Assembly: GCA_949451605.1 (NCBI GenBank)
Contig: CASTSB010000006.1
Span: forward strand, 15,592 to 79,591
Origin: an uncultured Bacilli bacterium
GTDB taxonomy: Bacteria; Bacillota_I; Bacilli_A; RF39; UBA660
Length of the DNA: 64,000 nucleotides
Direction of reading: 5' to 3'
Shown here piece by piece: positions 2,777 through 58,680 of the stretch; position 1 is the first letter of the stretch; the number at the start of each line of letters is the position of its first letter. The notes under the pieces were generated by a model. That model worked only from the letters and a program-made list of their open reading frames with translations, was not told the origin of the DNA and did not search any database. The position numbers were made by a program, and so were the translations under genes.

Positions 2777-4237
2777 ATGAGTATTAAAAGGTTAGTAAAT
2801 AGTAAAAACTTATCAATTTTAATTGTAATGTTTGTAGTAACTTTAAGTTGTGCTTATGCATCTTTTAATAGTGTTTTAAATATAACTGGAACAGTAGCCG
2901 ATGTCCGTATAAAAAGTGATATAAGAATAACAGGAATAAGAGTAAATGGAGTAACTAGTGGAGGAACATCGTTATCAGAAGACTATAATAAAGCAAGTTT
3001 AAAAGTAGGAACACTTTTACCTAATAGTGGATCAACAGTTTCCTATGCGGTAGATATAACAAATACCGGAAATCAAGAGATGAAATTAGCGTCTATTACA
3101 GGTCTTCCAGATAACTTAGAATATGTACTTACTGACTACAACATAGGGGATAAGTTATGTCAAAATGATAAATGTTCCCTAGGTCTTACAAAGACAATTA
3201 TTCTAACTTTAAAATATAAAGATGGAAGTTTTTCTTCAACATTTACTACACATAACTTAAATTTAAATTTTGAGTTTAAGAGATTTACTAATAGTTATTT
3301 AAGATCTGCTAGTCAAGAATCATATAGTACATCTCCTTTTTTAAATACAGATATTACAAAATCACAAATCGAATCTGTAACTTTTAAAAGTAGTGATGAA
3401 ATACCTGATAGTGCGATTACTTTTAGTGATAAAAAATATTTTGATGTTTCTCATGATCAATCGGATAGTATAAAATTATATGCAGAAGATATGGATTCTA
3501 ATGGATTGTATGAAATTTATATAGGACAAGATGGAGGAGTAAAGGCAAATTCTGGTTCTCAATATTTGTTTCTTAATCTAAATAATGTTTATAAAATTGA
3601 TTTGCAGAAACTTAATACTGATGGAGTAACTAGTATGTCAGAAATGTTTCGATATTGTAGTAAAATTGTTACTTTAGATCTTTCAAATTTTAATACATCT
3701 GATGTTACAACGATGGCTTTTATGTTTGCTTATTGTCAGAAAATTAATAGTTTGGATCTTACAAACTTTGATACAACTGGTGTCAAAAACATGAGATCAA
3801 TGTTTGATCATTGCACAAGTTTAACATATTTAAATTTATCTAGTTTTAATACACAAAATGTTACAGATATGGGTGTAATGTTTCAATGGTGTAGCAGTTT
3901 AACAACTCTTGATCTTTCATCATTTAATACTTTATTAGTAACAGATATGTCTTATATGTTTTTCACTTGTAGTAAACTTGTTAATTTAGACTTAACTATG
4001 TTTAACACAGAAAAAGTGACAAATATGAGTTATATGTTTACTTCTTGTGGATCTCTAAAAACAATAGATTTAAGAGGAGAATATTTTACAGTGGATGCTG
4101 CAAGAAACAATTTGACTGATATGTATAAAGGTTGTTCTTCATTAGAGGCTGTATATCTTCGTGATATTAATGAAAGAGCTATTTATAGGTTGAATTATCC
4201 TGATTATGAAAGTATTCCTTTTAATAACGTTGCATAA
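2777..4237 (+). CDS. Exported BspA-type (DUF285-like) LRR protein with N-terminal TasA-like domain (family A, copy 1)
   Basis: Signal peptide ending CAYA-SFNSVLNITG; LPNSGSTVSYAVDITNTGN; 26-aa repeats LDLSxFNTxxVTxMxxMFxxC. Confidence 0.85.
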   Translation: MSIKRLVNSKNLSILIVMFVVTLSCAYASFNSVLNITGTVADVRIKSDIRITGIRVNGVTSGGTSLSEDYNKASLKVGTLLPNSGSTVSYAVDITNTGNQEMKLASITGLPDNLEYVLTDYNIGDKLCQNDKCSLGLTKTIILTLKYKDGSFSSTFTTHNLNLNFEFKRFTNSYLRSASQESYSTSPFLNTDITKSQIESVTFKSSDEIPDSAITFSDKKYFDVSHDQSDSIKLYAEDMDSNGLYEIYIGQDGGVKANSGSQYLFLNLNNVYKIDLQKLNTDGVTSMSEMFRYCSKIVTLDLSNFNTSDVTTMAFMFAYCQKINSLDLTNFDTTGVKNMRSMFDHCTSLTYLNLSSFNTQNVTDMGVMFQWCSSLTTLDLSSFNTLLVTDMSYMFFTCSKLVNLDLTMFNTEKVTNMSYMFTSCGSLKTIDLRGEYFTVDAARNNLTDMYKGCSSLEAVYLRDINERAIYRLNYPDYESIPFNNVA

Positions 4238-4263
4238 TAAAAACGACAGTAATGTCGTTTTAT
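4237..4263. terminator. Probable bidirectional terminator between convergent genes
   Basis: aaaacgac-agtaat-gtcgtttt hairpin flanked by A and T runs. Confidence 0.75.
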
Positions 4264-4266
4264 TTG

Positions 4267-4968
4267 TTAGTTTCTAACTATAGTTCCAATATTTTCATCA
4301 AGGACTATTTTCTTTAAGTTTCCTTTTACATTTACATTAAATACATAGATTGGAATATTTTCATCCATACAAAGACTTGTTGCGGTAGAATCCATTACAT
4401 GTAATTTTTTATTTAATACTTCTATATAAGTTATTTCATCGAACTTTTTAGCATCTTCATATTTTTTTGGATCTTTGTCATAGACTCCATCAACTTTAGT
4501 TGCTTTTAATAAAACGTCTGCTTTTATTTCGGCTGCACGTAGAGCAGAAGCTGTATCAGTAGAGAAGAATGGACTTCCTGTTCCACATCCAAATACTACA
4601 ACTCTTCCTTTTTCTAAATGTCTAATTGCTCGATCTTTTATATAAAACTCTGCAATTTGTCTCATTTCTACTCCAGTTTGAACTCTTACTGGTACATTTA
4701 ATTGTTTAAATGCATCTCCTAAGGCTAGAGCATTCATTACTGTTCCCATCATACCTATATAGTCTGATGTAGCTCTATCCATATATTCATTGCTTTTTCC
4801 TCTCCAAAAGTTTCCTCCTCCAACTACTATTCCAATTTCTACGCCTAATTCTACGCATTCTTTAATTTCGTTAGCAAGCTCAAGGACTCTTTCAAAATCA
4901 ATTCCTGTATTTTTATCTCCTGCAAGTACTTCACCGCTAAGCTTTAAAAGTATTCTTTTGTATTTCAT
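4267..4968 (-). CDS. pyrH: UMP kinase
   Basis: [27 protein letters not shown] motifs; start placed at ATG 4968 after AAGGAGGT RBS. Confidence 0.97.
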
Positions 4969-5057
4969 GTTTACCTCCTTGTTATATAATATCATAGAAT
5001 ATCTATTGAATAAATTATTTTTATGTTAAAATAAGTTTAAATTTAGGAGGTAGTATT

Positions 5058-5483
5058 TTGGAAAATTACATTAAAGTAGGGCTTGGAATTATGATAAAAG
5101 ATGGTAATAAGGTTTTACTTGGTCATAGAACAAAAGAAAGAAAAGATACTGGAGGAATATTTGAGCCAGATAGCTGGACTTTTCCTGGTGGGAAGCAAGA
5201 ATTTGATGAGACTGTAATAGAGGGCGCTATACGTGAGGTAAAAGAGGAGACTAACTTGGATACTTCAGATATTAAAGTATTTAATGTATCTGATGATATT
5301 CAACCAAATAAACATTATGTGACTATACAATTAATTGCATCTAGTTATAGTGGTGAGTTAAGAGTTATGGAACCTTTGAAAGAAGATAAGTGGGGATGGT
5401 TTGATCTAGATAATCTACCTAATAATTTATATTCTCCTACTAAAAAGTTTATCGAGAAATATAAGTCGATGAATAATAAATAA
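5058..5483 (+). CDS. NUDIX hydrolase
   Basis: Nudix box PGGKQEFDETVIEGAIREVKEETNL; GGAGG RBS. Confidence 0.9.
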   Translation: MENYIKVGLGIMIKDGNKVLLGHRTKERKDTGGIFEPDSWTFPGGKQEFDETVIEGAIREVKEETNLDTSDIKVFNVSDDIQPNKHYVTIQLIASSYSGELRVMEPLKEDKWGWFDLDNLPNNLYSPTKKFIEKYKSMNNK

Positions 5484-5498
5484 AAATCTACGATTTCG

Positions 5499-5528: not shown

Positions 5529-5534
5529 CTAACT

Positions 5535-5615: not shown

Positions 5616-5637
5616 TTAATATAAAAGGAGGTAAATT

Positions 5638-6580: not shown

Positions 6581-6639
6581 GTGTTGATAAAAAGATAAAA
6601 AATATATATACTAATAATAGTATTATGCTAGGTGATAAA

Positions 6640-8616
6640 ATGAAAAAGCTTTTTATACATAGATACTTATCTTTAATAGTTATTTTAATTACTTTAATGT
6701 TAACAGTAGGATATTCTGCTTTTAGTGTTAAAATGGATATTAATGATACTTCTTTAGAAGTTAGAGTTAAGCAAGATATAAGAGTAACAGGTGTTACTGT
6801 AAGTGATAGGTCTAATGCTGGTATATCAAATTATGAGGATTATAATAAGAATAGTATAAGTACTGGAATTAGTTTGCCAAATGAGAATTCTACAATTACA
6901 TACAATGTTGAAATAACAAATATTGGTAGTGGAGCTATGGGAATAAATTCAATAGATGGTTTGCCAAGTAATTTAGAATATCAAGTTAGTGATTATGAAA
7001 TGCAAAAGCCTTTATGTGATGTGAATAATAAGTGTACTTTAGGTATGGTTAAAAATATAAAGCTTACTATTAAATATAAGAATAATTCTTTTGATTCTGC
7101 TAATGTTAATTATAATTTAAATGTTAATTTTAATTTTGAAAGATTACATACAATTACTTATGAAGATAGTAGTGGTAATGTTTATCATGATTATGTTACT
7201 GATAATGCAAGATTTATATTAAATTATGATGAGCTAGGACTTGTTCCTCCAACTGAATTTAAAGTAACTATGGGTGGTGTAGTAATTGATGATTATGTTT
7301 CAATGGGACCTATTCTTATAATAATGAGTGTTACTGGTGATGTGGTTATAGAAGGAGTTTTCCCAGATTATTTGATGTCAGTTGCTAAGGTTAACAGTGC
7401 TGATGTAGCAGTATTAGGTAATAATAATTTGAAACACTTTCAAATAGAATCTATTGTTTTTTCTAATACAAAAGAAGTGCCTAGTAGTGCAATTGGATCA
7501 TGGGATGTATCCGAAGCTAAGGATAATTCTATAATAGCCTATTATTTAGATAGTAATAGTAATGGTTTATATGAAATGGTAATTGGCCAAGATGGTGGAG
7601 TAAAAGCAAATCCTGATTCTAGTAATTTGTTTAGTTATTTTACTAATGTAACATCAATTAGTTTTGATAATTTTATTACTGAAGAAGTTACAAATATGAG
7701 CTTTTTATTTTCGAATTGTAATAATTTAGTTGATTTGAATTTAAATAATATTAATACTTCTAATGCTACAAATCTTGAAAATATGTTTTATAATTGTACT
7801 AATCTAATTAGTATAGATTTATCTTGTTTAATTACTGGAAAAGTTACTAATATGAGTTCTTTATTTTCGGGATGTAAAAATTTAGATGATTTTGATGTTT
7901 CAGCTCTTAATACTTCTAATGTTACTAGTATGACAGATATGTTTAGAAATTGTGAATCTATTAAAAGTTTAGATCTTACTTCATGGAATATTAATAATTT
8001 AGTAAGTATGGATTATATGTTTCAATCTTGTTATAATCTTGAAAGAGTTAATTTAAGTGGATTAAATGCTTCTAATGTTTTACAATTTGATTGTTTGTTT
8101 TTATATTGTGTAAATTTAACTGAAATAGATTTCACTAATTTTAAAACGAATAAAGTTACAAGTATGAGAGCTATGTTTCGTCAATGTGAAAAGCTTACAA
8201 CTTTAGATCTTTCATCTTTTGATACTCGTAATGTTACAAGAATGAATGAAATGTTTATGTATTGTTACAATTTAGTAAGTCTAGATTTAAGGATGTTTGA
8301 TACTACAAATGTTACTAATTTTGCTAGTATGTTTTCAGAATGTAGAAAAATTACTGAATTAAATATTTCTAATTTTAATACAAGAAAAGCAAAAGACATG
8401 TCTTCTATGTTTTCTAGAATGGATTCAGTAAAATATATTTATATTGATGGTGTTGATTTTATGCCACCAGGTGATACTAATTTTAGTGGTATGTTTCCAA
8501 CTACTAATGGTAATTTACAACAAGTTCGTGTTTATAATATTTCTTATCTTGAACCATATTTTGCAGGAAGTTATGCTGAAGAGATGAGAAATGTGCCTTG
8601 GGAAGTGGCTCATTAG
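6640..8616 (+). CDS. Exported BspA-type LRR protein with TasA-like N-terminal domain (family A, copy 2)
   Basis: Start after GGTGA RBS; VGYS-AFSVKMDIND junction; LPNENSTITYNVEITNIG; IGQDGGVKAN; 26-aa LRRs. Confidence 0.85.
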   Translation: MKKLFIHRYLSLIVILITLMLTVGYSAFSVKMDINDTSLEVRVKQDIRVTGVTVSDRSNAGISNYEDYNKNSISTGISLPNENSTITYNVEITNIGSGAMGINSIDGLPSNLEYQVSDYEMQKPLCDVNNKCTLGMVKNIKLTIKYKNNSFDSANVNYNLNVNFNFERLHTITYEDSSGNVYHDYVTDNARFILNYDELGLVPPTEFKVTMGGVVIDDYVSMGPILIIMSVTGDVVIEGVFPDYLMSVAKVNSADVAVLGNNNLKHFQIESIVFSNTKEVPSSAIGSWDVSEAKDNSIIAYYLDSNSNGLYEMVIGQDGGVKANPDSSNLFSYFTNVTSISFDNFITEEVTNMSFLFSNCNNLVDLNLNNINTSNATNLENMFYNCTNLISIDLSCLITGKVTNMSSLFSGCKNLDDFDVSALNTSNVTSMTDMFRNCESIKSLDLTSWNINNLVSMDYMFQSCYNLERVNLSGLNASNVLQFDCLFLYCVNLTEIDFTNFKTNKVTSMRAMFRQCEKLTTLDLSSFDTRNVTRMNEMFMYCYNLVSLDLRMFDTTNVTNFASMFSECRKITELNISNFNTRKAKDMSSMFSRMDSVKYIYIDGVDFMPPGDTNFSGMFPTTNGNLQQVRVYNISYLEPYFAGSYAEEMRNVPWEVAH

Positions 8617-11828: not shown

Positions 11829-12503
11829 ATGGATAAATATAAAAGTAGATCTATTATGATAATAATATTATTAGTTGGTGTTATTAGCCTTTCAATTGGA
11901 CTTGCAGTTTTTTCATCAACTTTAAATATTAAATCTGGTACAACTGTTAGTCCAGACCCTTCTAAATTTAAAATAGCTGCTTCTGCTTCTAAAGATAATA
12001 CTACTTCTTTGCAAATTTCTCCTTCTGCTTATGTTTTACCTTCAGGGTTAATAAGTAACTCTTCTACTGCGACTATTACTAATTCAGGCAATATGGTAAC
12101 TATTTCTAATGTTAAACCTTATTTTACTGCTCCTAGACAAATAATTGAGTATATATTTTATGTTCATAATATAGGAGAGTATCCAGCTTATTTAAAGAGT
12201 TATTCTCAGTTTCTTTTACCGAGATGTGTATCTCTTGAAGGAACAACAGATTCTTTAGTTCAACAAGCGTGTAATGATATTAATACTGGAATTTGTCTAT
12301 TAGATTTTAATGGTAGATGTAATAATAGCCAATCTGACTTAGATAAAAACAATTATGTTATTCCGGTAGGTGGTAGTACAAAGATTTCTGTAAGATTAAA
12401 TTATTCATTACATTCTAATAGGGATAATGTAGTTGCAGATGGACCTTTCACAGTAGAATTTGATAATATAAATATTGTATTTGGATCTCAACCTACAAGT
12501 TAA
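11829..12503 (+). CDS. Exported ~230-aa TasA/CalY-like protein (family B, copy 1)
   Basis: SIGLA-VFSSTLNIKS junction, FTAPRQ..YIFYVHNIG, C-x14-C, DGPFTVEF; paralogous to 35154 and 57973. Confidence 0.7.
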   Translation: MDKYKSRSIMIIILLVGVISLSIGLAVFSSTLNIKSGTTVSPDPSKFKIAASASKDNTTSLQISPSAYVLPSGLISNSSTATITNSGNMVTISNVKPYFTAPRQIIEYIFYVHNIGEYPAYLKSYSQFLLPRCVSLEGTTDSLVQQACNDINTGICLLDFNGRCNNSQSDLDKNNYVIPVGGSTKISVRLNYSLHSNRDNVVADGPFTVEFDNINIVFGSQPTS

Positions 12504-14342: not shown

Positions 14343-14819
14343 TTATTGGTTATTGGATGTTTAACTATTGGATTTGCAACTTTTTCTAGTATTTTGAATA
14401 TAAAATCTTAAACTACTATATCGAACTCAAATTTATGATTTTTATATACATAATGTTTTTAAATTAAATGCATATTGGAAGAGATTAGAAATTAAAAAGG
14501 CAGGAAGCGATGAAAAAGCAACTAGTCAGAGTCAGTGTATAAAGTGTATAGCTAGATAAGGGACAACAGATACCTTGGTTCAAGCAACTTGTAAATATAT
14601 TAAGGTCATGATAGTTAAGGCTCCTCTTGAAGGGCATGGTGGTCTAAATTGTTCATTTAATGTTCCTCGCAATGAACTTATCGCCCCAACAATAAAATAT
14701 ATTTTTATGTAGAAATATATTTTTATTATAATGTATATGTTAAAAATTCTGTTATGGCGGATGGTCCGTTTGATGTTTAAATAGGAAATATAGAATTTGA
14801 GTTTTCTTCTCAACCATAA
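14343..14819 (+). pseudogene. Decayed family B (TasA-like) paralog
   Basis: Fragments LVIGCLTIGFATFSSILNIKS*, FYIHNVFKLNAY...CIAR*GTTDTLVQATC and MADGPFDV*IGNIEFEFSSQP*; several stops, an internal deletion, no start codon. Confidence 0.85.
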
Positions 14820-18154: not shown

Positions 18155-18861
18155 GTGAATATAAATTATCGTAGAAAAAATAATAAGTTAGTTATTATAA
18201 TAATACTAGTTGTTACAATTTTTGGAGTTTCTATAGGTCTGCAACATTTTCAGAAAACTTAAAAATTAATAGTTCTACTCAAATAAATCCGAGTCCAGAT
18301 AACTTTCAGCTTAATATTACTAGTACTAAAGCTACAACACAAGCAATTCATATAGACCCAGAACTAGGTATAGATGAGCCTTCAGAAGGCGATAGAGTAC
18401 CATCTCTTCCGAAGGCTGCACCAGCAATAATTAATAACACATTAAAAAATCCATATATAGAGAATATTAATGCACAATTTACTGAGCCAGGACAATTAGT
18501 AAAATTTAATTTTTATATCTTTAACCCTGGAAAATATACTGCTTTTGTTAAAGACTCTAAATTTATTAATAAAGTTAATACAGAGTATTATTGGAATGCT
18601 GATATAACTTGTAAGGCTAAAAATGGTGCAACTGAGGCTTTAGTGCAAGATGCGTGCTCTTGTATTTCAACGGGGGTCTATACAGTGGATGATGATGGTA
18701 CATTTATTGATAAAGGAGTTGCAAAACAAACAATTCTCCCAAATGGATTTAGTAAAATGGTTATGATAGGTATTAGTTATGGTTATGGATGTCAAATGCT
18801 AGATGGGCCATTTGATGTAGAAATTAGTGATTCTATGGTTAATTTTTCAACTGCTGAATAA
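18155..18861 (+). pseudogene. Family B (TasA-like) paralog with a single 1-nt deletion frameshift near 18240
   Basis: GTG start after GAGGTG: MNINYRRKNNKLVIIIILVVTIFGVSIGL, continuing in a shifted frame as ATFSENLKINS...FTEPGQLVKFNFYIFNPG...CKAKNGATEALVQDAC...DGPFDVEI; the ORF track shows only 18643-18861. Confidence 0.85.
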
Positions 18862-25822: not shown

Positions 25823-28800
25823 ATGGATAATTTTTTTAGAAAATTAGAGAAATATATAAATCGTAAAAATATTTCTTTATTAATCGTTTGTATAATAATG
25901 CTACTTAGCTTTGGTTATGCGGCATTTAATTCTAATCTTAATATATCAGGTTTCTCAGCTGATGTTAGAATAAGGGAAGATATAAGAATAACAGGAATTA
26001 GAACTAGTAGTTTTAATAATGCCTCATCTACTTATGAGGATTATAATAAGAAGAATATACAAGTTGGTGTAACTCTTCCAAGTTCTACATCTGAGGCAGT
26101 ATACTCAGTAGATATAACTAATCTTGGTAATGTAGAGATGGGTATTCTTTCAATTAATAATTTACCAGATAATTTATTACTTGAAGTATTAGATTATGAA
26201 ATGAATAAAGTTTTATGCCAAGATAATAAATGTAGTCTAGGAATGACTAAAACAATAAGAGTTAAAATTAAATATAAAAATGGAGGATTCTCTGCATCTT
26301 CAACAACTTATAATTTGAAATTAGATTTTGATTTTCAAAGGATGTATACAGTTACATATAATACTCAGGCCGGGGCTAATAAGACTGATAAAGCCATTAA
26401 CAATGGAACATATAAATTAGATTATAATCAAGAGTCAGTAAAGCCTACTAGTATGGCAGTTAAGATGAATAATCAAGCAATAACTGATTATACTTATACT
26501 TATCAAGAAGGAATACTAACAATTCCAAATGTATCAGGAGATATTGTAATTACTAATAGTTATATTGATTATTTAAAAGTATCAGGAAACCCTGATTCAG
26601 AAGATGTACAATTCTTTAATCAAGGAATTAAAAGAAACGAAATAGAGTCAGTAACATTTAAAAATAGTAAGGCAGTATCAAGAGCCGTTGTGAAAAGCTT
26701 TGATATATCACAAGATAATACTGGCAACATTATGGCTTATTATATGGATGAAGATTCTAATGGGTTATATGAATTATATATAGGCCAAGATGGAGGAGTA
26801 AATGCAAATAAAGACTCAAGTTATCTTTTTAAATATATGACTAATCTTAAAAATATAGATTTCACATACTATAATACCGATGCCGTTACTAGTATGAATT
26901 CTTTATTTAATTATTGTAGTAGCCTAACTAGTCTTGATTTATCAAGATTCAATACTTCTAAAGTAACAGATATGGGATGGATGTTTAGTGTTACTAGTGC
27001 TTTAACAAATTTAGATTTATCAATGTTTGACACAAGAGAAGTTACTAACATGCGTTCTATGTTTCATACTAATAGCAGTTTGACTGAACTTGATTTAAGT
27101 AATTTCATAACTACTAAGCTTACAAATATGGATAGTATGTTTAGAGGATGTAGTAATTTGATTAGCTTAGATTTAAGTAGTTTTAATACTTCTAATGTAA
27201 CAAATATGGAAAGCTTGCTTTATGAAGATATTAAATTAAATGATTTAAAATTTACACCAAATATATTTCTTACTAATAATGTAACTAGTATGGGATGGAT
27301 GTTTTATAAATGTAATGCCTTAGGTAATATAGATACCTCAAAATTTGTTGCAACAGAAGCAGTACAACTTAAAAGTATGTTTGCACAATGTACTAGTATG
27401 ACAACAATTGATTTAAGTAATTTTATGCAAACAAAAGCTGAAGATACATCATTTATGTTTAGTGGTTGTACAAATTTAAAAAATGTTAATATTAGTAATT
27501 TGGATGTAAGTTCTTCTACTTCTTTTAATCAAATGTTTAATAGCTGCTCAAGTCTTATTAGTGTAGATTTAAGTGGCTTTAACGCCAATTCAGTTACATC
27601 AACATATAGAATGTTTTATGGTTGTGAATCATTATCTAATATTAAATTTAATAATTTTGATGGAAGTAAGAATACAACTATGTATCAAATGTTTTACAAT
27701 TGTGGCAATCTTACTAATTTAGATTTAAGTAGTTTTAATACAGCTAGTGTAAAAAATATGCAATCAGTTTTTTATTGTTGTTCTAAACTTTCTACAATAA
27801 CTTTAAATCCTACAATATTTAAAACAGATAATGTAACAAATATGGGCTGGATGTTTTTTAGATGTAATGCATTAACTGCAGTTGATACGAGCAAATTCAC
27901 TGCTACAAATGTAGAACAAATGAAAAGTATGTTTTGTGATTGTTCTGAACTTACAAGTTTAAATCTTAGTAATTTTACTTCTTCAAAAGTTACAAATAAT
28001 GATTTTATGTTTAGTGGATGTAGTAAGCTTTCTAGCTTGATAATAAATAATTTTAATCCGAATTTATCTACATCGATGCAAGGGATGTTTGATGGTTGTT
28101 CTGAGTTGACTTCACTTGATATTTCTAAATTTAGTACAAGTAATGTTACAAATATGCAATCGATGTTTAGTGGTTGTCATAAAATTGTTACTATTACGTT
28201 CGATAAAAGTTTATTCTTAACAGATAAAGTAAAAAATCTGTCAGGTATGTATAATGAATGTTTCAAATTAATTTCTTTAGATTTAAGTAATTTTAATACT
28301 GCAAATGTTACTACTATGAGAATAATGTTTCAACAGTGTAATAATTTAAGTTCAATAAATATAAATCCTAATTTGTTTATTACAAGTGCAGTAACTGATT
28401 TTGTAGCAATGTTTAATCAATGTTCTGTGCTAACTAATGTTGATACAAGTAAGTTTGTTGCAACTAATGCTACAGATACTAAATGGATGTTTAGGTCATG
28501 TTCTAATATAACATCAATTAATTTAAGTAATTTTATAAGTTCTAAAACTACTGACACGTCATATATGTTTAGTGGATGTACTAGTTTAACTAATTTAGAG
28601 ATCAGTAAACTAGATACTTCTAATGTAGTTAATATGTCTAATATGTTTAATGAATGTAATTCACTAGTTTCTTTGAACGTTATTAATTTTAATACCTCAA
28701 ATGTTACTAATATGGAATTAATGTTTTATAATTGTAATAAACTTACAACTTTAACTTTTGATAAAACTAAGTTTTTAACTAATAATGTAACCACAATGGA

Positions 28801-30031
28801 TAGAATGTTTTGTCAATGTAGCAGCTTAACTAGTCTTGATGTGAGCAATTTTAATACAGCTAATGTGACAATTATGCAGTCAATGTTTTTTGATTGTAAT
28901 AAACTAACTGAAATAGATGTATCAAATTTCAATACAGAAAAAGTTACTAATATGTTTAAAATGTTTTTTCAATGTAAATCAGTTACAAATTTAAATTTAA
29001 GTAATTTTAATACTCCTGTATTAACAGCAATGGATCAAATGTTTAGAGATTGTAACGTATTAACTTCTTTAGATTTAAGAGGATTTAATACCAGTCAAAT
29101 TACAAAGATGGATTATTTATTTTATAATTGTAAAAAATTAACAACAGTTCAAATTGATTCTAGTATATTTAAAACTGATAAAGTAACAAGTTTAGGTTGG
29201 ATGTTTTATAATTGCAATTCTCTAACTTCTATTGATACTTCAAAATTTGTTGCTACAAATGCGACCCAATTAAAATGTATGTTTTATAATTGCAATGCTT
29301 TAACAAATTTAGACTTATCTATGTTTAGTAATACTCCTGCAACTAATACTAGTTGGATGTTTTATAATTGTTCTTCTTTAGTAACATTAAACATAAGTAA
29401 TTTTAATCCTTCATCATCAACAACAATGGAGCGTATGTTTAATAAATGTAATAAATTAACAGCACTTAATGTGTCAAAATTTAATACTAGTAATGTTACT
29501 AACATGAATTGTATGTTTGATAGTTGTGGGAGTTTAACTACTTTAAATATAACTAATTTTAACACTTCTAATGTTACGAATATGGGGGCAATGTTTACGG
29601 CTTGTTATGGTTTATCATCATTAAATGTAAGTAATTTTAATACAAGTAAGGTTACAAATATGAGTTCAATGTTTGCTTCTTGTTTTGGTCTAACTTCGCT
29701 TGACTTAAGTAATTTTGATACATCTAGTCTAACTGATATGAGTTCTATGTTTTACTATTGTAACAAATTAACTACTTTAAATTTAAATAATTTTAATACG
29801 AGAAAGGTTACTAATATGTATGGATTATTTAATCAATGTTCAGGTTTAAAAACAATTTATATAGATGGAATAGATTTTATGCCACCTAGCACATGTAATT
29901 TTGATAGTATGTTTTTAAATACTACGAGTTTGCAAGGAATTTATGTTTATAATATTAGTTATTTAGAACCATATTTGTATAGTGATTATAGTGATCAGTT
30001 ACAATCTTTACCATGGGAAGTGAGCCATTAG
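25823..30031 (+). CDS. Very large exported BspA-type LRR protein with TasA-like N-terminal domain (family A, copy 3)
   Basis: FGYA-AFNSNLNISG junction; LPSSTSEAVYSVDITNLGN; roughly 40 repeats of 26-28 aa. Confidence 0.88.
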   Translation: MDNFFRKLEKYINRKNISLLIVCIIMLLSFGYAAFNSNLNISGFSADVRIREDIRITGIRTSSFNNASSTYEDYNKKNIQVGVTLPSSTSEAVYSVDITNLGNVEMGILSINNLPDNLLLEVLDYEMNKVLCQDNKCSLGMTKTIRVKIKYKNGGFSASSTTYNLKLDFDFQRMYTVTYNTQAGANKTDKAINNGTYKLDYNQESVKPTSMAVKMNNQAITDYTYTYQEGILTIPNVSGDIVITNSYIDYLKVSGNPDSEDVQFFNQGIKRNEIESVTFKNSKAVSRAVVKSFDISQDNTGNIMAYYMDEDSNGLYELYIGQDGGVNANKDSSYLFKYMTNLKNIDFTYYNTDAVTSMNSLFNYCSSLTSLDLSRFNTSKVTDMGWMFSVTSALTNLDLSMFDTREVTNMRSMFHTNSSLTELDLSNFITTKLTNMDSMFRGCSNLISLDLSSFNTSNVTNMESLLYEDIKLNDLKFTPNIFLTNNVTSMGWMFYKCNALGNIDTSKFVATEAVQLKSMFAQCTSMTTIDLSNFMQTKAEDTSFMFSGCTNLKNVNISNLDVSSSTSFNQMFNSCSSLISVDLSGFNANSVTSTYRMFYGCESLSNIKFNNFDGSKNTTMYQMFYNCGNLTNLDLSSFNTASVKNMQSVFYCCSKLSTITLNPTIFKTDNVTNMGWMFFRCNALTAVDTSKFTATNVEQMKSMFCDCSELTSLNLSNFTSSKVTNNDFMFSGCSKLSSLIINNFNPNLSTSMQGMFDGCSELTSLDISKFSTSNVTNMQSMFSGCHKIVTITFDKSLFLTDKVKNLSGMYNECFKLISLDLSNFNTANVTTMRIMFQQCNNLSSININPNLFITSAVTDFVAMFNQCSVLTNVDTSKFVATNATDTKWMFRSCSNITSINLSNFISSKTTDTSYMFSGCTSLTNLEISKLDTSNVVNMSNMFNECNSLVSLNVINFNTSNVTNMELMFYNCNKLTTLTFDKTKFLTNNVTTMDRMFCQCSSLTSLDVSNFNTANVTIMQSMFFDCNKLTEIDVSNFNTEKVTNMFKMFFQCKSVTNLNLSNFNTPVLTAMDQMFRDCNVLTSLDLRGFNTSQITKMDYLFYNCKKLTTVQIDSSIFKTDKVTSLGWMFYNCNSLTSIDTSKFVATNATQLKCMFYNCNALTNLDLSMFSNTPATNTSWMFYNCSSLVTLNISNFNPSSSTTMERMFNKCNKLTALNVSKFNTSNVTNMNCMFDSCGSLTTLNITNFNTSNVTNMGAMFTACYGLSSLNVSNFNTSKVTNMSSMFASCFGLTSLDLSNFDTSSLTDMSSMFYYCNKLTTLNLNNFNTRKVTNMYGLFNQCSGLKTIYIDGIDFMPPSTCNFDSMFLNTTSLQGIYVYNISYLEPYLYSDYSDQLQSLPWEVSH

Positions 30032-35153: not shown

Positions 35154-35846
35154 ATGAATATTGATTTAAGAAGTAAAAAGATAATAGTTATATTATTATT
35201 GCTAGCTTTATTTTGCTTATCTATTGGATTTGCGATGTTTTCATCAACTTTAAATATAAAAAGTGAAGCAACTATTAGTCCAGATGCTAGTAATTTTAAT
35301 GTTATTTTGTCTAGTTCTTCATCTGCAATTGAAAAAGAAGAGATTGTTCCTACCTCAGCAACTGAAGCGGTGGCGGCTAATTCAACAAATGCTATAATTA
35401 GTGAAGATGGAAAGTCTTTATCAAATATAAGTGTTGCGTTTACAGAGCCTGGACAGTCTGTCACTTATAAAATTTATGTGATAAATGATGGTAATTTGAA
35501 AGCTTGGTTAAAAAATTACGGTTTTTATAAAAAAACTAAAGAATTAAGAGTATGTACTCCAGGAGAAGGAGCAAATGAAGAGTTAACTAGTATTGCTTGT
35601 GAAGGTATCAAATACGTTGTGAATCCCCATCTTTCTAGACAAGTTCTTGGACAAGGAACTACTTTTCCATTGTCTGGATCTGGTGAAAATGTTATGGGTG
35701 TTGGTGGAGGCTCATATATAGATGATAATTCATATTATGAAATTTATATAACTGTTAAGTATGAAGAAAATGCTGCTAGAGTTGATGGACCATTTACCGT
35801 TCAATTTTCAGACTTGTTATTTATATTTAGATCTTCTGCAAATTAG
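35154..35846 (+). CDS. Exported ~230-aa TasA/CalY-like protein (family B, copy 2)
   Basis: SIGFA-MFSSTLNIKS, FTEPGQSVTYKIYVINDG, CTPGEGANEELTSIAC, DGPFTVQF. Confidence 0.72.
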   Translation: MNIDLRSKKIIVILLLLALFCLSIGFAMFSSTLNIKSEATISPDASNFNVILSSSSSAIEKEEIVPTSATEAVAANSTNAIISEDGKSLSNISVAFTEPGQSVTYKIYVINDGNLKAWLKNYGFYKKTKELRVCTPGEGANEELTSIACEGIKYVVNPHLSRQVLGQGTTFPLSGSGENVMGVGGGSYIDDNSYYEIYITVKYEENAARVDGPFTVQFSDLLFIFRSSAN

Positions 35847-40150: not shown

Positions 40151-42601
40151 ATGTATATAAATATTAGGAAGTTTATAACTAGTAAAAATTTATCTATTTT
40201 AATTGTGGTTATAGTTATAAGTTTATCATTATCTTATGCCGCTTTTAATAGTGTTTTAAATATTACTGGAACTGCTTTAAATGTTAGAATTAAGCAAGAT
40301 ATAAGAATTACTGGTATTAGAGTAGGGAGTGTTTTAAATAGTGGAATATCTAATTATGAGGATTTTAATAAAAACTCTGTTGATGTCGGTATAAGTCTTC
40401 CAAACAATAATTCAATAGTTAAATATGAAGTGGATATAACAAATCTCGGTAATGCTGAGATGGGAATTTATGAAGTGAAGGGCTTACCAAGTAATTTATA
40501 TTATTCTTTTGAAGAATATGAAGAAAAATCAAAAATTTGTGTAAATGACAAGTGCAGTTTAGGTATTACTAAAAAAGTTGTTTTATTAATCGGTTATTTA
40601 GATAATGGGTATGATTCTTTATCAACTAATTATAATTTAAAATTAGATTTTGATTTTCAAGGATTTAGAACTGTAAAATATAATATTTCAAATGGAAGTA
40701 CAAAAACTGATAGTGTTATGAATAAGAATCGTTATTCCTTAGATTTTAGTAAGGAGGGTGCAATTCCTAATAGTGTGTCTCTTACTATGGGAGGAGCTAG
40801 TTATAATGATCATATTTATTCTAATAGTAATGGATTATTGATTATAGCAAGTGTAACGGGAGATGTTGTTATAAATGCATCATATAAAGCTGATGTTTTA
40901 AGGGTGGCTTCTAGCGGTGGTTCAACATCTATGTTTTATAATACAACTATTGAGAAAAGATCAATTGAGTCATTGACTTTTAAAGATTCTAAAGAGGTTC
41001 CAACAGGTGTAGAGAGTTTTGATGTTTCAGCAGATGGAACAGGTAATATACTTTTGTATGCTTTAGATGAGGATGAAAATGGTCGTTATGAAGTGTATAT
41101 AGGTCAAGATGGTGGAGTAAAAGCGAATCGTGATTCTAAATATATGTTTAATTATTTGATATATCTTACTAATATTGATTTAACACATCTTGATACTTCA
41201 AATTCTGTATCTTTCCGTTATATGTTTGATGGCTGTAAAAATTTACTAAGCGTTGATCTTAGTGGTTTAAATACTAGTAATGTAAATCATATGGGTAGTA
41301 TGTTTAATGTTTGTAATAACATAACTTCTATTAATTTTGGAAATATTGATACTAGTAAGGTTACTTCTATGCAAAATATGTTTACTAGTTGTCTAGCTAT
41401 TAACAATATTGATGTAAGTAATTTTGATACTTCTAATGTAACAGATATGAATGAAATGTTTTATAATTGTACTAATTTAAAAGAGTTAGATCTTTCTAAT
41501 TTTAATAATGCTAAAGTTACTAATATGAGATATATGTTTTGTGAATGTCAAAACCTTGGAAATATCAATTTAAATGGTTTTATTGCTTCTAAGGTGACTA
41601 CTATGTGGCGAATGTTTTTTAATTGTAAGAGTTTAGTTAATCTTGATTTGAGTTCATTTAATGCTTATTCTGTTACATCAACTAATGATATGTTCTATAA
41701 TTGTTCTAAGTTGCAAATATTAAATTTGAATAATTTTAATTCAGTAAGTGTTACAAGTATGACTTCTATGTTTGATAATTGTAGTAGTTTAATTGAATTA
41801 AAATTAGATGGTTTTAAAACTGATAATTGTTCCAGTTTTAGATATATGTTTAATAAATGCAAGTCATTAGAAAATATTAATCTAAGTGGCTTTAATACTT
41901 CTGCTGCTAATGATTTCTATACTATGTTTGGTGAATGTTCAAAACTAGTTAATTTAGACCTTTCTAACTTTGTAACTTTGAGGGTTACTAATATGTCTGG
42001 AATGTTTTATATGTGTACTTCTATGAAGTCTTTAAATATATCTAATTTTGATACAAGTAAAGTAACTAATATGAGTTCAATGTTTAATAATAATGGATTA
42101 GAAAATATTAATCTTTCTCATTTTAATACCAGTAAGGTAACTGATATGTCTTCAATGTTCAATGCTAGTAGAGCTTTAACGATAAATGTTAGTAGTTTTG
42201 ATACTTCAAGCGTTACAAATATGAATTATATGTTTAGTTATTGTAGTAATTTAACTAGTATTGATGTTACAAAATTTAATACTATTAATGTTACAAGTAT
42301 GAAAAGTATGTTTGAAAAATGTGATACTTTGGTAGAAATAGATGTTAGTAGATTTAATACTATTAATGTTACAACTATGGAAAATATGTTTTCTTACTGT
42401 TACAGTCTTAAGAAAATATGGCTTGATAGTGCAAGTTTTGTGTTTACTAATGTAACTACAATTAGGAATATGTTTACTAATTGTACAAGCTCAGTAACTG
42501 TTTGGTTATATGATTTAGTTCAGTTACAGGGTCTTGCTAATGTCCCAGATTTTTCGCAATGTAAAGATTCATATGTTGAGTTTGACATTGGTGGAAGATG
42601 A
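40151..42601 (+). CDS. Exported BspA-type LRR protein with TasA-like N-terminal domain (family A, copy 4)
   Basis: LSYA-AFNSVLNITG junction; LPNNNSIVKYEVDITNLGN; IGQDGGVKAN; 26-aa LRRs; TGA stop. Confidence 0.87.
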   Translation: MYINIRKFITSKNLSILIVVIVISLSLSYAAFNSVLNITGTALNVRIKQDIRITGIRVGSVLNSGISNYEDFNKNSVDVGISLPNNNSIVKYEVDITNLGNAEMGIYEVKGLPSNLYYSFEEYEEKSKICVNDKCSLGITKKVVLLIGYLDNGYDSLSTNYNLKLDFDFQGFRTVKYNISNGSTKTDSVMNKNRYSLDFSKEGAIPNSVSLTMGGASYNDHIYSNSNGLLIIASVTGDVVINASYKADVLRVASSGGSTSMFYNTTIEKRSIESLTFKDSKEVPTGVESFDVSADGTGNILLYALDEDENGRYEVYIGQDGGVKANRDSKYMFNYLIYLTNIDLTHLDTSNSVSFRYMFDGCKNLLSVDLSGLNTSNVNHMGSMFNVCNNITSINFGNIDTSKVTSMQNMFTSCLAINNIDVSNFDTSNVTDMNEMFYNCTNLKELDLSNFNNAKVTNMRYMFCECQNLGNINLNGFIASKVTTMWRMFFNCKSLVNLDLSSFNAYSVTSTNDMFYNCSKLQILNLNNFNSVSVTSMTSMFDNCSSLIELKLDGFKTDNCSSFRYMFNKCKSLENINLSGFNTSAANDFYTMFGECSKLVNLDLSNFVTLRVTNMSGMFYMCTSMKSLNISNFDTSKVTNMSSMFNNNGLENINLSHFNTSKVTDMSSMFNASRALTINVSSFDTSSVTNMNYMFSYCSNLTSIDVTKFNTINVTSMKSMFEKCDTLVEIDVSRFNTINVTTMENMFSYCYSLKKIWLDSASFVFTNVTTIRNMFTNCTSSVTVWLYDLVQLQGLANVPDFSQCKDSYVEFDIGGR

Positions 42602-55314: not shown

Positions 55315-57876
55315 ATGGCAAAGAAAAACGAAACAGAAGAAGTAATTGAAAAAATATTTGACTATACTCTTGAAGATATCATGGGTGAAAGATTTGGTAG
55401 TTATTCTAAGTATATTATTCAAGATCGTGCTATACCTGATGCTAGAGATGGTTTAAAGCCAGTGCAAAGAAGAATTCTATATTCAATGCACAAAGAGAAG
55501 AATACTTATGATAAGGGTTATAGAAAAAGTGCTAAGACTGTTGGAGACGTTATAGGTAATTACCATCCACATGGAGATACTTCAATATATGATGCGATGG
55601 TTAGAATGAGTCAACCTTGGAAGACTAGACTTCCATATATAGATATGCATGGTAATAATGGTTCTATTGATGGAGATAGTCCTGCGGCTTATCGTTATAC
55701 AGAAGCAAGACTTTCAAAAATATCAAATGAAATGCTAAGAGATATTGATAAAGATACTGTTGAGTTTTCTCCAAACTTTGATGATACAACGATTGAACCA
55801 ACGGTACTTCCTGCAAGATTTCCTGCACTTCTTGTATATGGAGCTCAAGGAATTTCTGCTGGATATGCAACAAATATTCCAACACATAATTTAAATGAAG
55901 TAGTTGATGCAACAATTTACCGTATTGATCATCCAGAATGTAGTTTAGATGATTTAATGAAGTTTGTAAAAGGGCCTGATTTTCCAACTGGTGGTACGAT
56001 AGAAGGACTAGATGGTATACGTGATGCATATAAAACAGGAAGAGGTAGAATTGTAATAAAGAGTAAATATCACTTTGAAGAGAGTAAAAGTGCTATTTCT
56101 TTAATAATTACGGAAATACCATTTGAAAGTAATAAAGCATTAACTGTTAAAAAAATAGATGATATTAGAATTGATAAAAAAATAGATGGCATTATAGAAG
56201 TTAGAGATGAATCAGCTGCAGATGTTCGAATTGTTATAGATATAAAGAAAAATGCTAATAAAGAATTAATATTAAATTATTTACTTAAAAATACTGATAT
56301 GCAAATTAGTTATAACTTTAATATGGTTGCGATTGTTAATAGAAGACCAAAGTTACTTGGACTTGTTCAAGCATTAGATGCTTTTATTGCTCATCAAAAA
56401 GAGGTTGTTAAAAGAAGAACCGAATTTGATTTGAAACATGCAAAAGCAAGATTTCATATTGTTGAAGGTTTAATTAAATGTATTTCTATTTTGGATGAAG
56501 TAATAGCAGTAATTCGTGCTTCTCAAAATAAAGCTAATGCTAAAGAAAATATCATGGAAAAATTTGGATTTAGCGAAGCACAAGCTGAAGCTATTGTTGT
56601 ATTACAACTTTATAGATTAACTAATACCGATGTTGTAGCTCTTGAAAAAGAGTTAGCTGACCTACAAAAAATTATTGAAGGTTTATCAGCTATTCTTGCA
56701 TCAGAGGCTGTATTAAAATCAGTAATGAAGAAAGATTTAAAAGATGTTAACCGTGAATATCCAACTGAGAGACTTACAGATATAAAAGAAGAAATTACAG
56801 AAATTAAGATTGATACTCAAGCAATGATTTCTAAAGAAGATGTTGTAGTAGTAGTAACAAAAGATGGATATTTAAAACGTACTTCGTTTAGATCTTTCCA
56901 AGCTTCTCAAATGGAAGATTTAACTTTAAAAGAAAATGATTATATTATTGGTTTATATGAAATGAATACTACGGACGTTTTATTAGTATTTACTAGTGGA
57001 GGAAATTATTTACATATTCCAGTTCATATGATTCCTGATTTAAAATGGAAAGATATGCCAAAGCATGTAAGTAATGTAATAGAAGTACCTGCTGGAGAAG
57101 TTATAGTTTCATCAATTCCAGCATATCAATTTGAGTCAGATAAGAATATTATTACTGTAACTAAGGGTGGTATAGTTAAACGTTCACCTTTAAAAGATTT
57201 TAAACTTCAAAGATTTTCTAAAGCATCTAGTTGTATGAAATTAAAAGATATGGATGTTTTACTTGATGCATTTGTAGAAGAAGATAAATATTTAATGATG
57301 ATTGCAGACTCTGGTTATATGTTAACGTTTGATGTTTCTGAGATACCTCTTCAAGGAGTTAAGGCTAGTGGTGTTAAAGGTATGATGCTTAAGAATGATT
57401 CTATTGTTTCTAGTGGAACTTTTGATTATCGAAAACATGAGTTTATTAGTATCATTACAACGAAGACTGGAAAGAGAGTAAGACTTAATGAGTTTGAATT
57501 ATCAACTAGAACAAGGCGAGGAATTCTTGCGGTTAGAGAAGTAAAATCTAATCCTTGTAAAATACTTAAAGCTTTTATAATAGATTCACGTAAATTTATT
57601 GGTATTAAAAATGGTGATATTAAAGTATTTAAGGCAACTGAACTTCCTATTGCAGATAGACATTCTACTGGTAGTCAAATATCTAAGAGTGATTTAGATG
57701 ATGCCTTTGCAGTAAGTGAATTGACTTCTCCAAGTAGTCATGAAGAAAAAATAGAAATACTTGATACAGAGGAAGTTAAGGAAGAAGTCCCTGTAAAAGA
57801 GATTTCTAAAAAGGATAAGGTATCTTTATCAGAGATAGATGATAGATTAATGACGATAGATGATTTTCTAAAATAG
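55315..57876 (+). CDS. parC: DNA topoisomerase IV subunit A
   Basis: MGERFGSYSKYIIQDRAIPDARDGLKPVQRR, YHPHGDTS, YRYTEARL. Confidence 0.93.
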   Translation: MAKKNETEEVIEKIFDYTLEDIMGERFGSYSKYIIQDRAIPDARDGLKPVQRRILYSMHKEKNTYDKGYRKSAKTVGDVIGNYHPHGDTSIYDAMVRMSQPWKTRLPYIDMHGNNGSIDGDSPAAYRYTEARLSKISNEMLRDIDKDTVEFSPNFDDTTIEPTVLPARFPALLVYGAQGISAGYATNIPTHNLNEVVDATIYRIDHPECSLDDLMKFVKGPDFPTGGTIEGLDGIRDAYKTGRGRIVIKSKYHFEESKSAISLIITEIPFESNKALTVKKIDDIRIDKKIDGIIEVRDESAADVRIVIDIKKNANKELILNYLLKNTDMQISYNFNMVAIVNRRPKLLGLVQALDAFIAHQKEVVKRRTEFDLKHAKARFHIVEGLIKCISILDEVIAVIRASQNKANAKENIMEKFGFSEAQAEAIVVLQLYRLTNTDVVALEKELADLQKIIEGLSAILASEAVLKSVMKKDLKDVNREYPTERLTDIKEEITEIKIDTQAMISKEDVVVVVTKDGYLKRTSFRSFQASQMEDLTLKENDYIIGLYEMNTTDVLLVFTSGGNYLHIPVHMIPDLKWKDMPKHVSNVIEVPAGEVIVSSIPAYQFESDKNIITVTKGGIVKRSPLKDFKLQRFSKASSCMKLKDMDVLLDAFVEEDKYLMMIADSGYMLTFDVSEIPLQGVKASGVKGMMLKNDSIVSSGTFDYRKHEFISIITTKTGKRVRLNEFELSTRTRRGILAVREVKSNPCKILKAFIIDSRKFIGIKNGDIKVFKATELPIADRHSTGSQISKSDLDDAFAVSELTSPSSHEEKIEILDTEEVKEEVPVKEISKKDKVSLSEIDDRLMTIDDFLK

Positions 57877-57882
57877 TTATTG

Positions 57883-57914
57883 AAGATAAACTAATTAATA
57901 AGTTTATCTTTTTT
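57883..57914 (+). terminator. Intrinsic terminator after parC
   Basis: aagataaact-N8-agtttatctt plus T run. Confidence 0.85.
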
Positions 57915-57921
57915 AGTTTAA

Positions 57922-57950
57922 TAGACAATTATTGTTAAATGTAATATACT
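57922..57950 (+). promoter_or_regulatory. sigmaA promoter of family B copy 3
   Basis: TAGACA-17nt-TATACT. Confidence 0.65.
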
Positions 57951-57972
57951 GTTATTAGTTAAAATAGTAGAG

Positions 57973-58680
57973 GTGTTTAAATTGAAAAAGCAAATAGATA
58001 GAAAATTACTAGTAATAATAGTATTATTAATTGGAGTTGGAATGTTATCGGTAGGGCTTGCAGCATTTTCAAGTAATTTGAATATTAAGTCTAGTACAAC
58101 AGTTTCTCCATCAAGTGAGAACTTTAAACTAGAGTTATCATGTTCTAAAGATGGGGCAGATGAATGTGAATTAGCTCCAACTTCTAATAATTCTGAATTA
58201 GTTGAGAAATCCTCAAAAGCTATAATTGAGAATAATGGTGATAGTTTAGTAATTAGAAATTTAAACTTTTATTTTACCGAACCTGGACAAGATTTAGCAT
58301 ATACTTTTTATGTAAGAAATATTGGTAATCTTGATGCCTATGTAGAACATTTTGGTCAAAGAAATATCGAAGGATACAATAGGGCTATTAGATGTACTGC
58401 TGGAGAAGGAACATCTCAAGCACTTGTTAATCAGCTTTGTGATGCTTCTTCAGAAAGTTTTAAATTATATTATAAAGCAATTCATTATGGAAGACATGGT
58501 AACGCTATTGATACAGCTTTTAGTGCTAGCAGATCGTTTGATCGTCCATTAGAAAAAGAAGGTAATGAAGTTCGATTAAATATTGTTTATGATACTAATG
58601 CCCCTAGAGTTGATGGACCAGTATCTATCGAGCTTGGAGAATTTTATATTAATTTTACATCTACTCCATACATCAAATAG
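57973..58680 (+). CDS. Exported ~230-aa TasA/CalY-like protein (family B, copy 3)
   Basis: SVGLA-AFSSNLNIKS, FTEPGQDLAYTFYVRNIG, CTAGEGTSQALVNQLC, DGPVSIEL. Confidence 0.72.
   Translation: MFKLKKQIDRKLLVIIVLLIGVGMLSVGLAAFSSNLNIKSSTTVSPSSENFKLELSCSKDGADECELAPTSNNSELVEKSSKAIIENNGDSLVIRNLNFYFTEPGQDLAYTFYVRNIGNLDAYVEHFGQRNIEGYNRAIRCTAGEGTSQALVNQLCDASSESFKLYYKAIHYGRHGNAIDTAFSASRSFDRPLEKEGNEVRLNIVYDTNAPRVDGPVSIELGEFYINFTSTPYIK

Follow-up and report, generated by a model that had tools for sequence, protein, structure and literature searches.

A dispersed, expanded family of exported proteins with remote TasA ancestry in an uncultured gut Bacilli bacterium: candidate subunits of surface fibres

The window analysed here is a 64,000-nt stretch (C6:15592-79591, contig CASTSB010000006.1) of a 22-contig, 1.33 Mb assembly, 95% complete, from an uncultured Bacilli bacterium of the RF39 lineage UBA660; the G+C content is 27% for genome and window alike, and other contigs of the assembly are cited below as C1, C2 and so on. 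Scattered over the window, all on the + strand, are nine genes or gene relics whose products begin with a hydrophobic leader and a common junction. An initial annotation made from the sequence alone had taken them for a modular fibre system built from relatives of TasA, the fibre protein of Bacillus subtilis, and the nine copies are as it had listed them: seven are intact genes that translate as described, one is frameshifted and one is a relic.

Four of the intact genes encode large proteins. The first (2777-4237; 486 amino acids, aa) has the junction CAYA|SFNSVLNI and comprises an N-terminal domain (N-domain) predicted to be a sandwich, a small middle domain and a DUF285/PARCEL leucine-rich repeat (LRR) region. 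The second is read from an ATG at 6640 to 8616 (658 aa; VGYS|AFSVKMDI), its frame being already open from an ATG at 6625 (663 aa). The third (25823-30031; 1402 aa; FGYA|AFNSNLNI) has 26 PARCEL repeat matches, and the fourth occupies 40151-42601 (816 aa; LSYA|AFNSVLNI). The LRRs ascribed to these proteins at the outset are present in all four as DUF285/PARCEL repeats, with matches to PF03382 (E 2.5e-37 to 1e-160) and to TIGR02167 (E down to 7.9e-197).

The small class is represented by three intact genes, at 11829-12503 (224 aa; IGLA|VFSSTLNI), 35154-35846 (230 aa; IGFA|MFSSTLNI; the protein modelled below) and 57973-58680 (235 aa, with a GTG start; VGLA|AFSSNLNI). None of these three proteins has a Pfam or NCBIfam match over the cut-off, and none carries DUF285/PARCEL repeats. 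A fourth copy, at 18155-18858, is frameshifted by one base missing at the G-L-A junction codons (ggt ctg ca...), after which ...TFSENLKI and 224 open codons follow in the next frame. The relic at 14343-14813 has no start codon and has stops inside; it reads LTIGFATFSSILNIKS and then a stop. It retains only positions 16-45, 106-160 and 182-218 of the small-family profile, so the FTEPGQ core described below has been lost from it, in line with the deletion recognised initially.

The neighbours of the window copies are housekeeping genes, including those for FtsZ, an amino-acid kinase, Obg, a response regulator, YebC, RuvA and RuvB as well as QueA, a GreA-like protein, HD and DHH/DHHA2 proteins, a UvrD-like helicase and topoisomerase subunits, which indicates that each copy is a single insertion with its own upstream region. 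The family proteins have neither an LPXTG tail (a regular-expression scan returned two frames, neither of them a family member) nor a lipobox, and the N-terminal module is therefore the sole visible means of attachment. The idea of sortase anchoring was set aside on the result of that scan, despite the five sortase genes of the organism, and a lipoprotein leader was ruled out from the N-terminal sequences of the window proteins. Many described DUF285/PARCEL members are lipoproteins (compare 'PARCEL repeat surface lipoprotein' in NCBIfam). By their C-terminal parts all four large window proteins clearly belong to the DUF285/PARCEL and BspA-type LRR group, but here the repeats come without a lipobox and are hung on a TasA-like leader and sandwich. 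A wall-less, mycoplasma-like lifestyle was ruled out by five transpeptidase matches (penicillin-binding proteins).

Hidden Markov models (HMMs) of the small family and of the large N-domain, run on the six-frame open reading frames of the genome, revealed that the window holds only a part of the family. The small class has 21 intact genes (214-240 aa), six nearly full-length broken copies and a few relics; the large class has 12 frames with a complete N-domain, measuring 255 to 1,489 codons from stop to stop, and three broken copies. A third class consists of nine proteins of 171-490 aa with junctions such as SVGYA|YLSTNLDING. These 42 intact genes amount to 54,987 nt, or 4.1% of the genome, and about ten further copies are broken, so that the genome-wide repertoire suspected from the window does exist. 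Two third-class proteins at C8:28657-31101 (409 and 399 aa) have a concanavalin/Laminin_G_3-like C-terminal domain (E 1.9e-11 for one of them); in their C-terminal parts the same two also resemble the TafC fimbrial protein model, with weak matches (E 1.5e-3 and 3.8e-4) that fall far short of its cut-off.

The junction common to the family is L-S-x-G-[LFY]-A | x-F-[SN]-x-x-L-x-I. Among the 21 small genes, Ala at -1, Ser at +3, Leu at +6 and Ile at +8 are invariant, and +2 is Phe in 20 and Phe or Tyr in all 21. In the large class Phe occupies +2 in 12/12 genes, Leu +6 in 11/12 and Ile +8 in 10/12. The third class, eight of whose nine members fit the pattern, has Leu or Ile at +2, Leu at +6 and Ile at +8 in all eight. 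Given this pattern, positions 2, 4, 6 and 8 would form one face of an amphipathic strand. Conservation reaches +10 in the three diverged classes, which goes well past the needs of a peptidase site. Further along the chain, the shared core recognised initially is real: across 44 aligned small-family sequences, with a mean column identity of only 36%, FTEPGQ..Y.FY..N.G is almost invariant, and 47 aligned large-family sequences conserve LPN..S..tY.V.ITN.GN. A comparison of the two profiles by hhalign (96.2%, E 2.6e-9, 96 columns) runs from the leader through the PGQ/LPN...Y.V.ITN.G core and aligns both blocks. The small-family copies match one another over their full length by HMM, with E values of 1e-42 to 1e-85.

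The link of the family to TasA is a remote one that passes through relatives of the organism. These encode tandem proteins of 190-220 aa with the pattern LSIGFA|ALQTKLEING...KPGD..Y.F.V.N.G..DAKIG, located beside a long signal peptidase. An intermediate alignment of eight sequences, made of these operon-encoded proteins and three third-class proteins of the present genome, is matched by the small family at 99.7% (hhalign, E 2.5e-25, 174 columns). The same intermediate matches a canonical alignment at 94.1% (E 1.2e-7, 153 columns, from the leader to the C-terminal strands); the canonical alignment contains six GGTYA|LFSD proteins from classical SipW operons, at loci drawn by PF12389 over its cut-off. 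Because of this profile-profile chain, we take membership in the TasA superfamily to be supported by remote homology; membership in the Pfam family as defined is not supported. Two distant family members give sub-threshold matches to PF12389 (E 0.032 and 0.048), and the profile of the canonical alignment touches the AbpX chain 9sj2 only at E 0.53. A lead from the ESM Atlas points the same way: the nearest Pfam-bearing cluster to a stored homologue is one of PF12389 (score 0.93, 187 shared features), a family present on 22% of the members of that cluster.

The genome encodes four SipW-type signal peptidases over the TIGR02228 cut-off (51.85), as against one bacterial-type signal peptidase I, so the SipW-type enzyme that the initial annotation had counted on is available. 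Two of the four are long, at C3:77758-78924 (388 aa; 94-97 bits against TIGR02228) and C3:97813-98982 (388-389 aa for the pair), and consist of about 7-8 predicted helices, as counted by a crude hydropathy scan, followed by a catalytic domain with GSGSMSP, a conserved His and GDAN. Their N-terminal part of about 250 aa belongs to no Pfam family at E <= 1e-5 and could have a docking or assembly role. A conserved E-[LVE]-[FL]-R-Y motif occurs in this domain, here and in relatives. The first long peptidase heads a cassette (C3:77758-82460) in which it is followed by a DUF5305 gene (PF17231 at C3:78929-79837, E 7.2e-12) and, two genes downstream of the peptidase, by a large family gene of 845 aa. 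The second is preceded by three family-like genes of 434-490 aa.

This arrangement recurs among relatives. We surveyed 40 related genomes, 24 of the same taxonomic family and 16 outside it; they are non-independent samples, which applies to all co-occurrence counts given here. The N-module of the family occurs in 17 of the 24 and in none of the 16, and DUF5305 in 16 of the 24 and likewise in none of the 16. Within the taxonomic family, DUF5305 accompanies the module in 16/17 module-positive genomes and is found in 0/7 module-negative ones. In all 17 DUF5305-positive genomes, the source genome included, no more than about 1.1 kb separates DUF5305 from a SipW-type frame of 363-405 aa, and in 14 of them a family gene lies within about 3 kb. 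A neighbourhood conserved in this way gives strong evidence that the family, the peptidase and DUF5305 are functionally linked. The initial statement that the copies form no operon thus holds within the window and fails elsewhere, in this genome and in relatives, where the cassette is conserved.

Other peptidase and DUF5305 genes of the genome stand apart from this cassette. The two short SipW-type peptidase genes (186 and 200 aa) head clusters of small exported proteins (C8:42657-45893 and C2:24994-26818); one of these proteins has the canonical junction PGTYA|FY; these clusters look like separate classical TasA-type operons in the same genome. A further DUF5305 gene (477 aa) and a third-class gene of 187 aa are located in C8:22060-25129, between rimM-trmD and rplS-lepB. 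Whether lepB (C8:22060-22557), which encodes the bacterial-type signal peptidase, is linked to the family gene close by was also considered; with rplS in between, the case was judged weak.

AlphaFold models were obtained for one protein of each window class. The model of the small protein encoded at 35154, built from 44 aligned sequences (predicted local distance difference test score, pLDDT, 83.8), has a helix at residues 5-30 that runs through the junction, an unstructured, low-confidence segment at 31-48 and a beta-sandwich at 50-226 that holds two invariant cysteines, C134 and C149. The model of the large protein encoded at 2777 (pLDDT 85.5) has a helix at 9-32, a low-confidence segment at 32-45 and a compact sandwich at 49-169, beyond which follow a linker, a small domain and the LRR region at about 260-465. 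In both monomer models some 16-18 residues after the junction are thus unpacked and of low confidence. Compared with 48,161 solved chains, the small model has as its top match the Sulfolobus 0406 thread (7pnb, Z 7.7), followed by a xanthanase domain (Z 7.1), the AbpA bundling pilus (7ueg, Z 7.1) and the TasA fibre (8aur, Z 6.6), with CS17 pili at rank 8 and cannulae at rank 17; in a second comparison with 998 chains, AbpA ranked first and the TasA fibre second. The fold comparison is consistent with a TasA-like sandwich and is not decisive. For the whole 486-aa model the search was filled by LRR matches, namely TpLRR and LRR proteins of gut bacteria at Z about 15, and is uninformative on the N-domain. 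A complex prediction for three mature copies of the small protein (residues 28-230) gave scores of 0.37, 0.39 and 0.35, under the mark of 0.42, with controls at 0.00; we give this result no weight in either direction.

In public data the same leader and first domain bear different passenger domains, as the modular design proposed initially would have it. Judged by precomputed Pfam assignments, 48 homologues of the large N-domain include 23 with PF09479 (Flg_new), 11 with PF03382 (DUF285), five with PF14200 (ricin-type lectin) and one with PF19789 (DUF6273); one additionally has a von Willebrand factor A (vWA) domain, and nine have nothing known. The small-family profile matches 3,538 representative clusters at E <= 0.001; tightening the limit to E <= 1e-10 leaves 1,317, and to E <= 1e-30, 651. 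Many of the matched proteins carry the whole module N-terminally in a chain of 270-657 aa; ten such longer proteins comprise one with a BspA-type LRR, one with a weak DUF6273 match and eight without a Pfam domain. A word-based homologue search returned 30 matches, all unnamed. A relative from the same taxonomic family encodes a 438-aa protein whose TasA-type leader is canonical (GGTYA|WF), and the adjoining gene has a prepilin-type N-terminus (MNQKGFTLVEV...); separately, one public DUF285 protein carries the prepilin N-methylation motif (PF07963); from these cases, the same passenger domain appears to be mounted on different fibre leaders.

The upstream regions hint at switching. The 2777 gene is preceded by a promoter-like TTGACA - 20 nt - TATACT (2707-2738, + strand), whose spacer contains G6AG4 (2722-2732), with a terminator-like hairpin at 2665-2687 just before it; our consensus promoter scan, limited to spacers of 16-18 nt, missed it because of its longer spacer. 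Two paralogues are arranged likewise, their spacers measuring 19 nt (G10) and 18 nt. The genome has only two G/C runs of at least 7, both G10 and both in large-family genes: one (C15:8511-8520) lies in the TTGACA...TATACT spacer of its gene, and the other (C1:66555-66564) inside its gene, exactly at the frame break. The C1 stretch is present in 17 runs from eight studies of mouse and related gut metagenomes. In one run, a 428-nt contig (depth 11.8) has the tract one G shorter together with a 30-nt insertion upstream, changes that by coordinate arithmetic put both gene halves in one frame; this tract length comes from one contig in one run, the other three of four runs having no contig across the tract, a gap that says nothing either way. 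The difference suggests, as a hint, phase variation of large-family genes. At least six small-family genes (for example at C3:68157, C4:81634, C14:7283, C5:98632, C4:42453 and C1:121642) share a near-identical upstream block (cttgcaaatatatataataaggataatagaggtg), which implies that the unit of duplication includes the 5' region. The number of TA repeats or A residues in this block differs between copies, and the length of the repeat might tune expression.

TasA-type donor-strand fibres are known as single-operon biofilm scaffolds. The donor strand of TasA comprises residues 28-38, the 11 residues with which the mature chain begins at the SipW cut, and F29 (+2) makes a hydrophobic contact; Phe at P2' is described as poorly cut by LepB, and TasA as dependent on SipW (PMC10269814). 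The family resembles TasA/TapA/SipW of B. subtilis, and CalY of B. cereus, in its Sec leader, in a dedicated archaeal/ER (endoplasmic reticulum)-type signal peptidase by which it would be cleaved, in the Phe at P2', in a core predicted to be a beta-sandwich or jelly-roll with a PG[DQ]...N.G block, and in the remote profile and fold links given above. It differs in the junction, G-[LFY]-A|xFS[SN] here against GGT[YFW]A|xF[ST]D in the TasA type, the Thr and the +4 Asp being missing; in having tens of dispersed paralogues, many with C-terminal adhesin domains, instead of a single operon; and in a long many-helix peptidase paired with DUF5305, with no TapA-like gene recognised.

Closer in layout are the AbpX and Tafi loci. 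The TasA superfamily, as outlined in the portion of the AbpX report available to us, includes TasA, AbpX, Tafi, AbpA, thread and CanA, and AbpX loci of archaea and bacteria, Bacillota among them, contain a ten-helix signal peptidase (TIGR02228), DUF5305 and minor or tip subunits; the AbpX donor strand has an aromatic residue at +2 and an acidic one at +4 and is unstructured in monomer predictions, and the low isoelectric point (pI, about 4) and about 15% Asp/Glu of AbpX are linked to calcium-dependent assembly (bioRxiv 10.64898/2026.01.04.697558). The present system has in common with these loci, so far as that portion goes, the many-helix TIGR02228 peptidase, the DUF5305 partner, large and small subunit-type genes, the aromatic +2 (in the small and large classes, the third having Leu or Ile) and an N-terminal arm that is floppy in models. 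Its peptidase has about 7-8 helices by the crude scan instead of ten, and the family profiles have no sequence match to the solved AbpX chain. Against the published picture it also stands out by different passenger domains, a far greater number of copies and dispersed genes. In haloarchaeal Tafi, TafD is described as a multi-helix signal peptidase dedicated to the system, without which TafA is not processed and no filaments form. TafG is its DUF5305 partner, and the tip, adapter, core and anchor subunits (TafA/C/E/F) share one N-terminal fold (PMC11821415, PMC12337348). The feature shared with Tafi is a peptidase and a DUF5305 gene beside filament subunits or, here, a family gene; the host here is a bacterium, the leaders are of Sec and not of Tat type, the catalytic domain is C-terminal to the membrane domain and not N-terminal as in TafD, and the subunit-type genes are far more numerous and scattered. 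BsaA of Clostridium perfringens is alike by description only: the parts of the literature at hand present it as a SipW-linked extracellular Bacillota protein that forms stable polymers (PMC7395162, PMC11580942), with polymerisation via intermolecular isopeptide bonds and a type IV pilus-associated secretion (PMC11580942).

The kind of system is known, and the initial impression that nothing of this form had been described holds in part only, since the Tafi and AbpX loci with their many-helix peptidase, DUF5305, donor-strand subunits and tips are published. Novelty lies in the expanded and dispersed gene set, in members bearing LRRs, in the altered junction and in possible switching. The main text of the AbpX report, in the portion available, mentions neither a paralogue expansion nor LRR fusions, and its supplements (Fig. 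S7, Table S3, Data S1) may list bacterial members. All the literature found on DUF5305, as far as its accessible text goes, concerns donor-strand filaments, and our literature search on TasA-like proteins, SipW and adhesins found no report that also names a leucine-rich repeat.

We propose, with a probability of about 60%, that the family is an expanded, lineage-specific branch of the TasA superfamily whose members are cleaved by SipW-type peptidases and assemble into donor-strand fibres, some members bearing adhesins. Since the leader and first domain are distantly related to TasA and the organism has special signal peptidases of its own, the proteins probably form surface fibres or adorn them, with sticky tips that can be interchanged. 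Each would begin with a Sec-type leader, the conserved junction and a beta-sandwich domain. The long, many-helix SipW/archaeal-type peptidase encoded beside DUF5305 would cut after the junction Ala and free an amphipathic N-terminal strand with Phe at +2, Leu at +6 and Ile at +8, which could then insert into the sandwich of a neighbouring subunit. The proteins of about 225 aa would make up the shaft of such a mixed fibre, and those joining the module to an adhesin-type domain (DUF285/PARCEL LRR here; Flg_new repeats, ricin-type lectin and vWA in relatives) would be incorporated in the fibre or form its cap. With many single-gene copies dispersed in the genome, some of them bearing G-tracts, the surface repertoire would be variable. 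A bolder version, which we hold only tentatively and regard as unlikely as it stands, is a 'plug-in' fibre in which more than 40 dispersed, individually switchable genes, some under G-tract control, share a universal donor-strand leader and supply interchangeable shaft subunits and heads (LRR, lectin, vWA, Flg_new) for one TasA-type scaffold that the many-helix SipW/DUF5305 machinery would mature; such a combinatorial, phase-variable surface would by analogy follow a logic like that of the variable lipoproteins of mycoplasmas, built on donor-strand exchange.

A number of observations weigh against the proposal of donor-strand fibres. PF12389 (Peptidase_M73) matches none of the seven window proteins at E <= 0.1 and none of the 44 aligned family members at E <= 5, TIGR04088 matches no window protein at E <= 0.1, and neither model finds anything in the six-frame genome at E <= 10; the two profile searches through which the initial annotation expected to recognise the family accordingly came back empty, and of the TasA likeness it claimed, the remote relationship stands and the match to the established models does not. 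Compared directly with the canonical TasA-like alignment, the small family reaches only 45.6%, over 47 columns that cover leader and junction, where the junction does resemble the canonical one, so that the TasA link rests on the eight-sequence intermediate and the six-sequence target. Among PDB sequences, the small-family and operon-relative profiles reach no filament protein at E <= 10, the solved chains of TasA, AbpX and Taf included, and 15 of the 44 members weakly match the generic Ig-like model PF22544 (best E 7.7e-5). The TasA-like fold presumed initially for the small subunit is compatible with the model: the sandwich and the top ranks of filament subunits (Z 6.6-7.7) are there, but all Z scores are below 8, a range common for models without true relatives in which unrelated sandwiches score 6-7, and Foldseek returns nothing from the PDB at E <= 0.001. 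The hydrophobic stretch is long (about 18 residues), and the helix that runs through the junction in both models would also suit a membrane anchor that stays uncleaved. At +4, where AbpX-like proteins and the canonical TasA-type proteins typically have an acidic residue, 20 of the 21 small genes have Ser, Asn, Gly or Gln, and the mature small proteins have a median pI of 5.04 and 10.3% Asp+Glu, which sets them apart from AbpX as it is described in the portion of its report cited above. Most family copies lie far from any peptidase gene. None of the 17 runs with the C1 stretch is on record as RNA.

Some of these points also suit a reading in which the proteins have the same ancestry and form no fibre. 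The module would then be a lineage-specific surface-display cassette for monomeric adhesins or antigens, kept in the membrane by an N-terminal helix left uncleaved or else cleaved and set free, with the sandwich as a stalk and the junction serving recognition by the peptidase and DUF5305 only. The long hydrophobic helix through the junction, the Ig-like matches and the merely middling fold matches suit such a cassette; variable surface antigens are usually encoded by such dispersed, monocistronic copies among housekeeping genes, the G-tracts suggest that single antigens are turned on and off, and no TapA-type anchor or nucleator was identified. We nevertheless consider it an unlikely explanation, though one with real weight. 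It gives no reason for an amphipathic strand kept to +10 in three diverged classes, beyond the need of a cleavage site, and the segment after the junction is unpacked in both models, as in known donor strands. Filament subunits are the best structural neighbours, tandem small subunits with a long SipW-type peptidase and DUF5305 reproduce the layout of known donor-strand filaments, and 21 small proteins without a passenger domain make poor sense as stalks.

A narrower version would confine the fibre to the small proteins as TasA-type matrix or fibre subunits and leave the large LRR proteins outside it, with a leader borrowed for export. It is indeed over the leader and the domain's first half that the two classes are most alike (96 columns), and the large N-domain, at about 120 residues, is shorter than the small sandwich at about 175. 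The hhalign match, however, extends beyond the leader across the PGQ/LPN...Y.V.ITN.G core, the large proteins retain the +2, +6, +8 pattern, it is a large and not a small gene that lies beside the long SipW/DUF5305 pair in this genome, and tip or minor subunits with extra domains are regular in the Tafi and AbpX loci as far as the accessible publications describe them; a borrowed leader is accordingly improbable. That the motif reflects a chance or compositional likeness of hydrophobic N-termini might be suspected in a genome of 27% G+C, signal peptides tending toward likeness in any case. This suspicion retains hardly any probability: it is refuted by the full-length HMM matches between copies, the invariance of -1, +3, +6 and +8 in all 21 small genes and the 651 representative public clusters matched at E <= 1e-30.

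If the proposal of donor-strand fibres is right, the building principle of TasA has become a multigene repertoire that takes up 4% of the 1.3 Mb genome of an uncultured mouse-gut bacterium, in which adhesin-type heads sit on a shared module and signs point to on/off switching. The system would illustrate how a gut symbiont with a minimal genome makes its surface diverse, and a large family so far without annotation, none of whose 3,538 representative clusters has a Pfam model, would gain a name and a function open to testing. The peptidase/DUF5305 maturation module would likewise extend from the archaeal Tafi and AbpX loci to host-associated Bacillota. The current TasA and SipW-signal HMMs miss this branch.

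Two minor observations concern the window as a whole. The GC skew is strongly positive over its entire length (1-64000), and the + strand holds 44 of its 49 frames of at least 150 aa; one of the five frames on the - strand lies inside ftsZ and is probably no gene.

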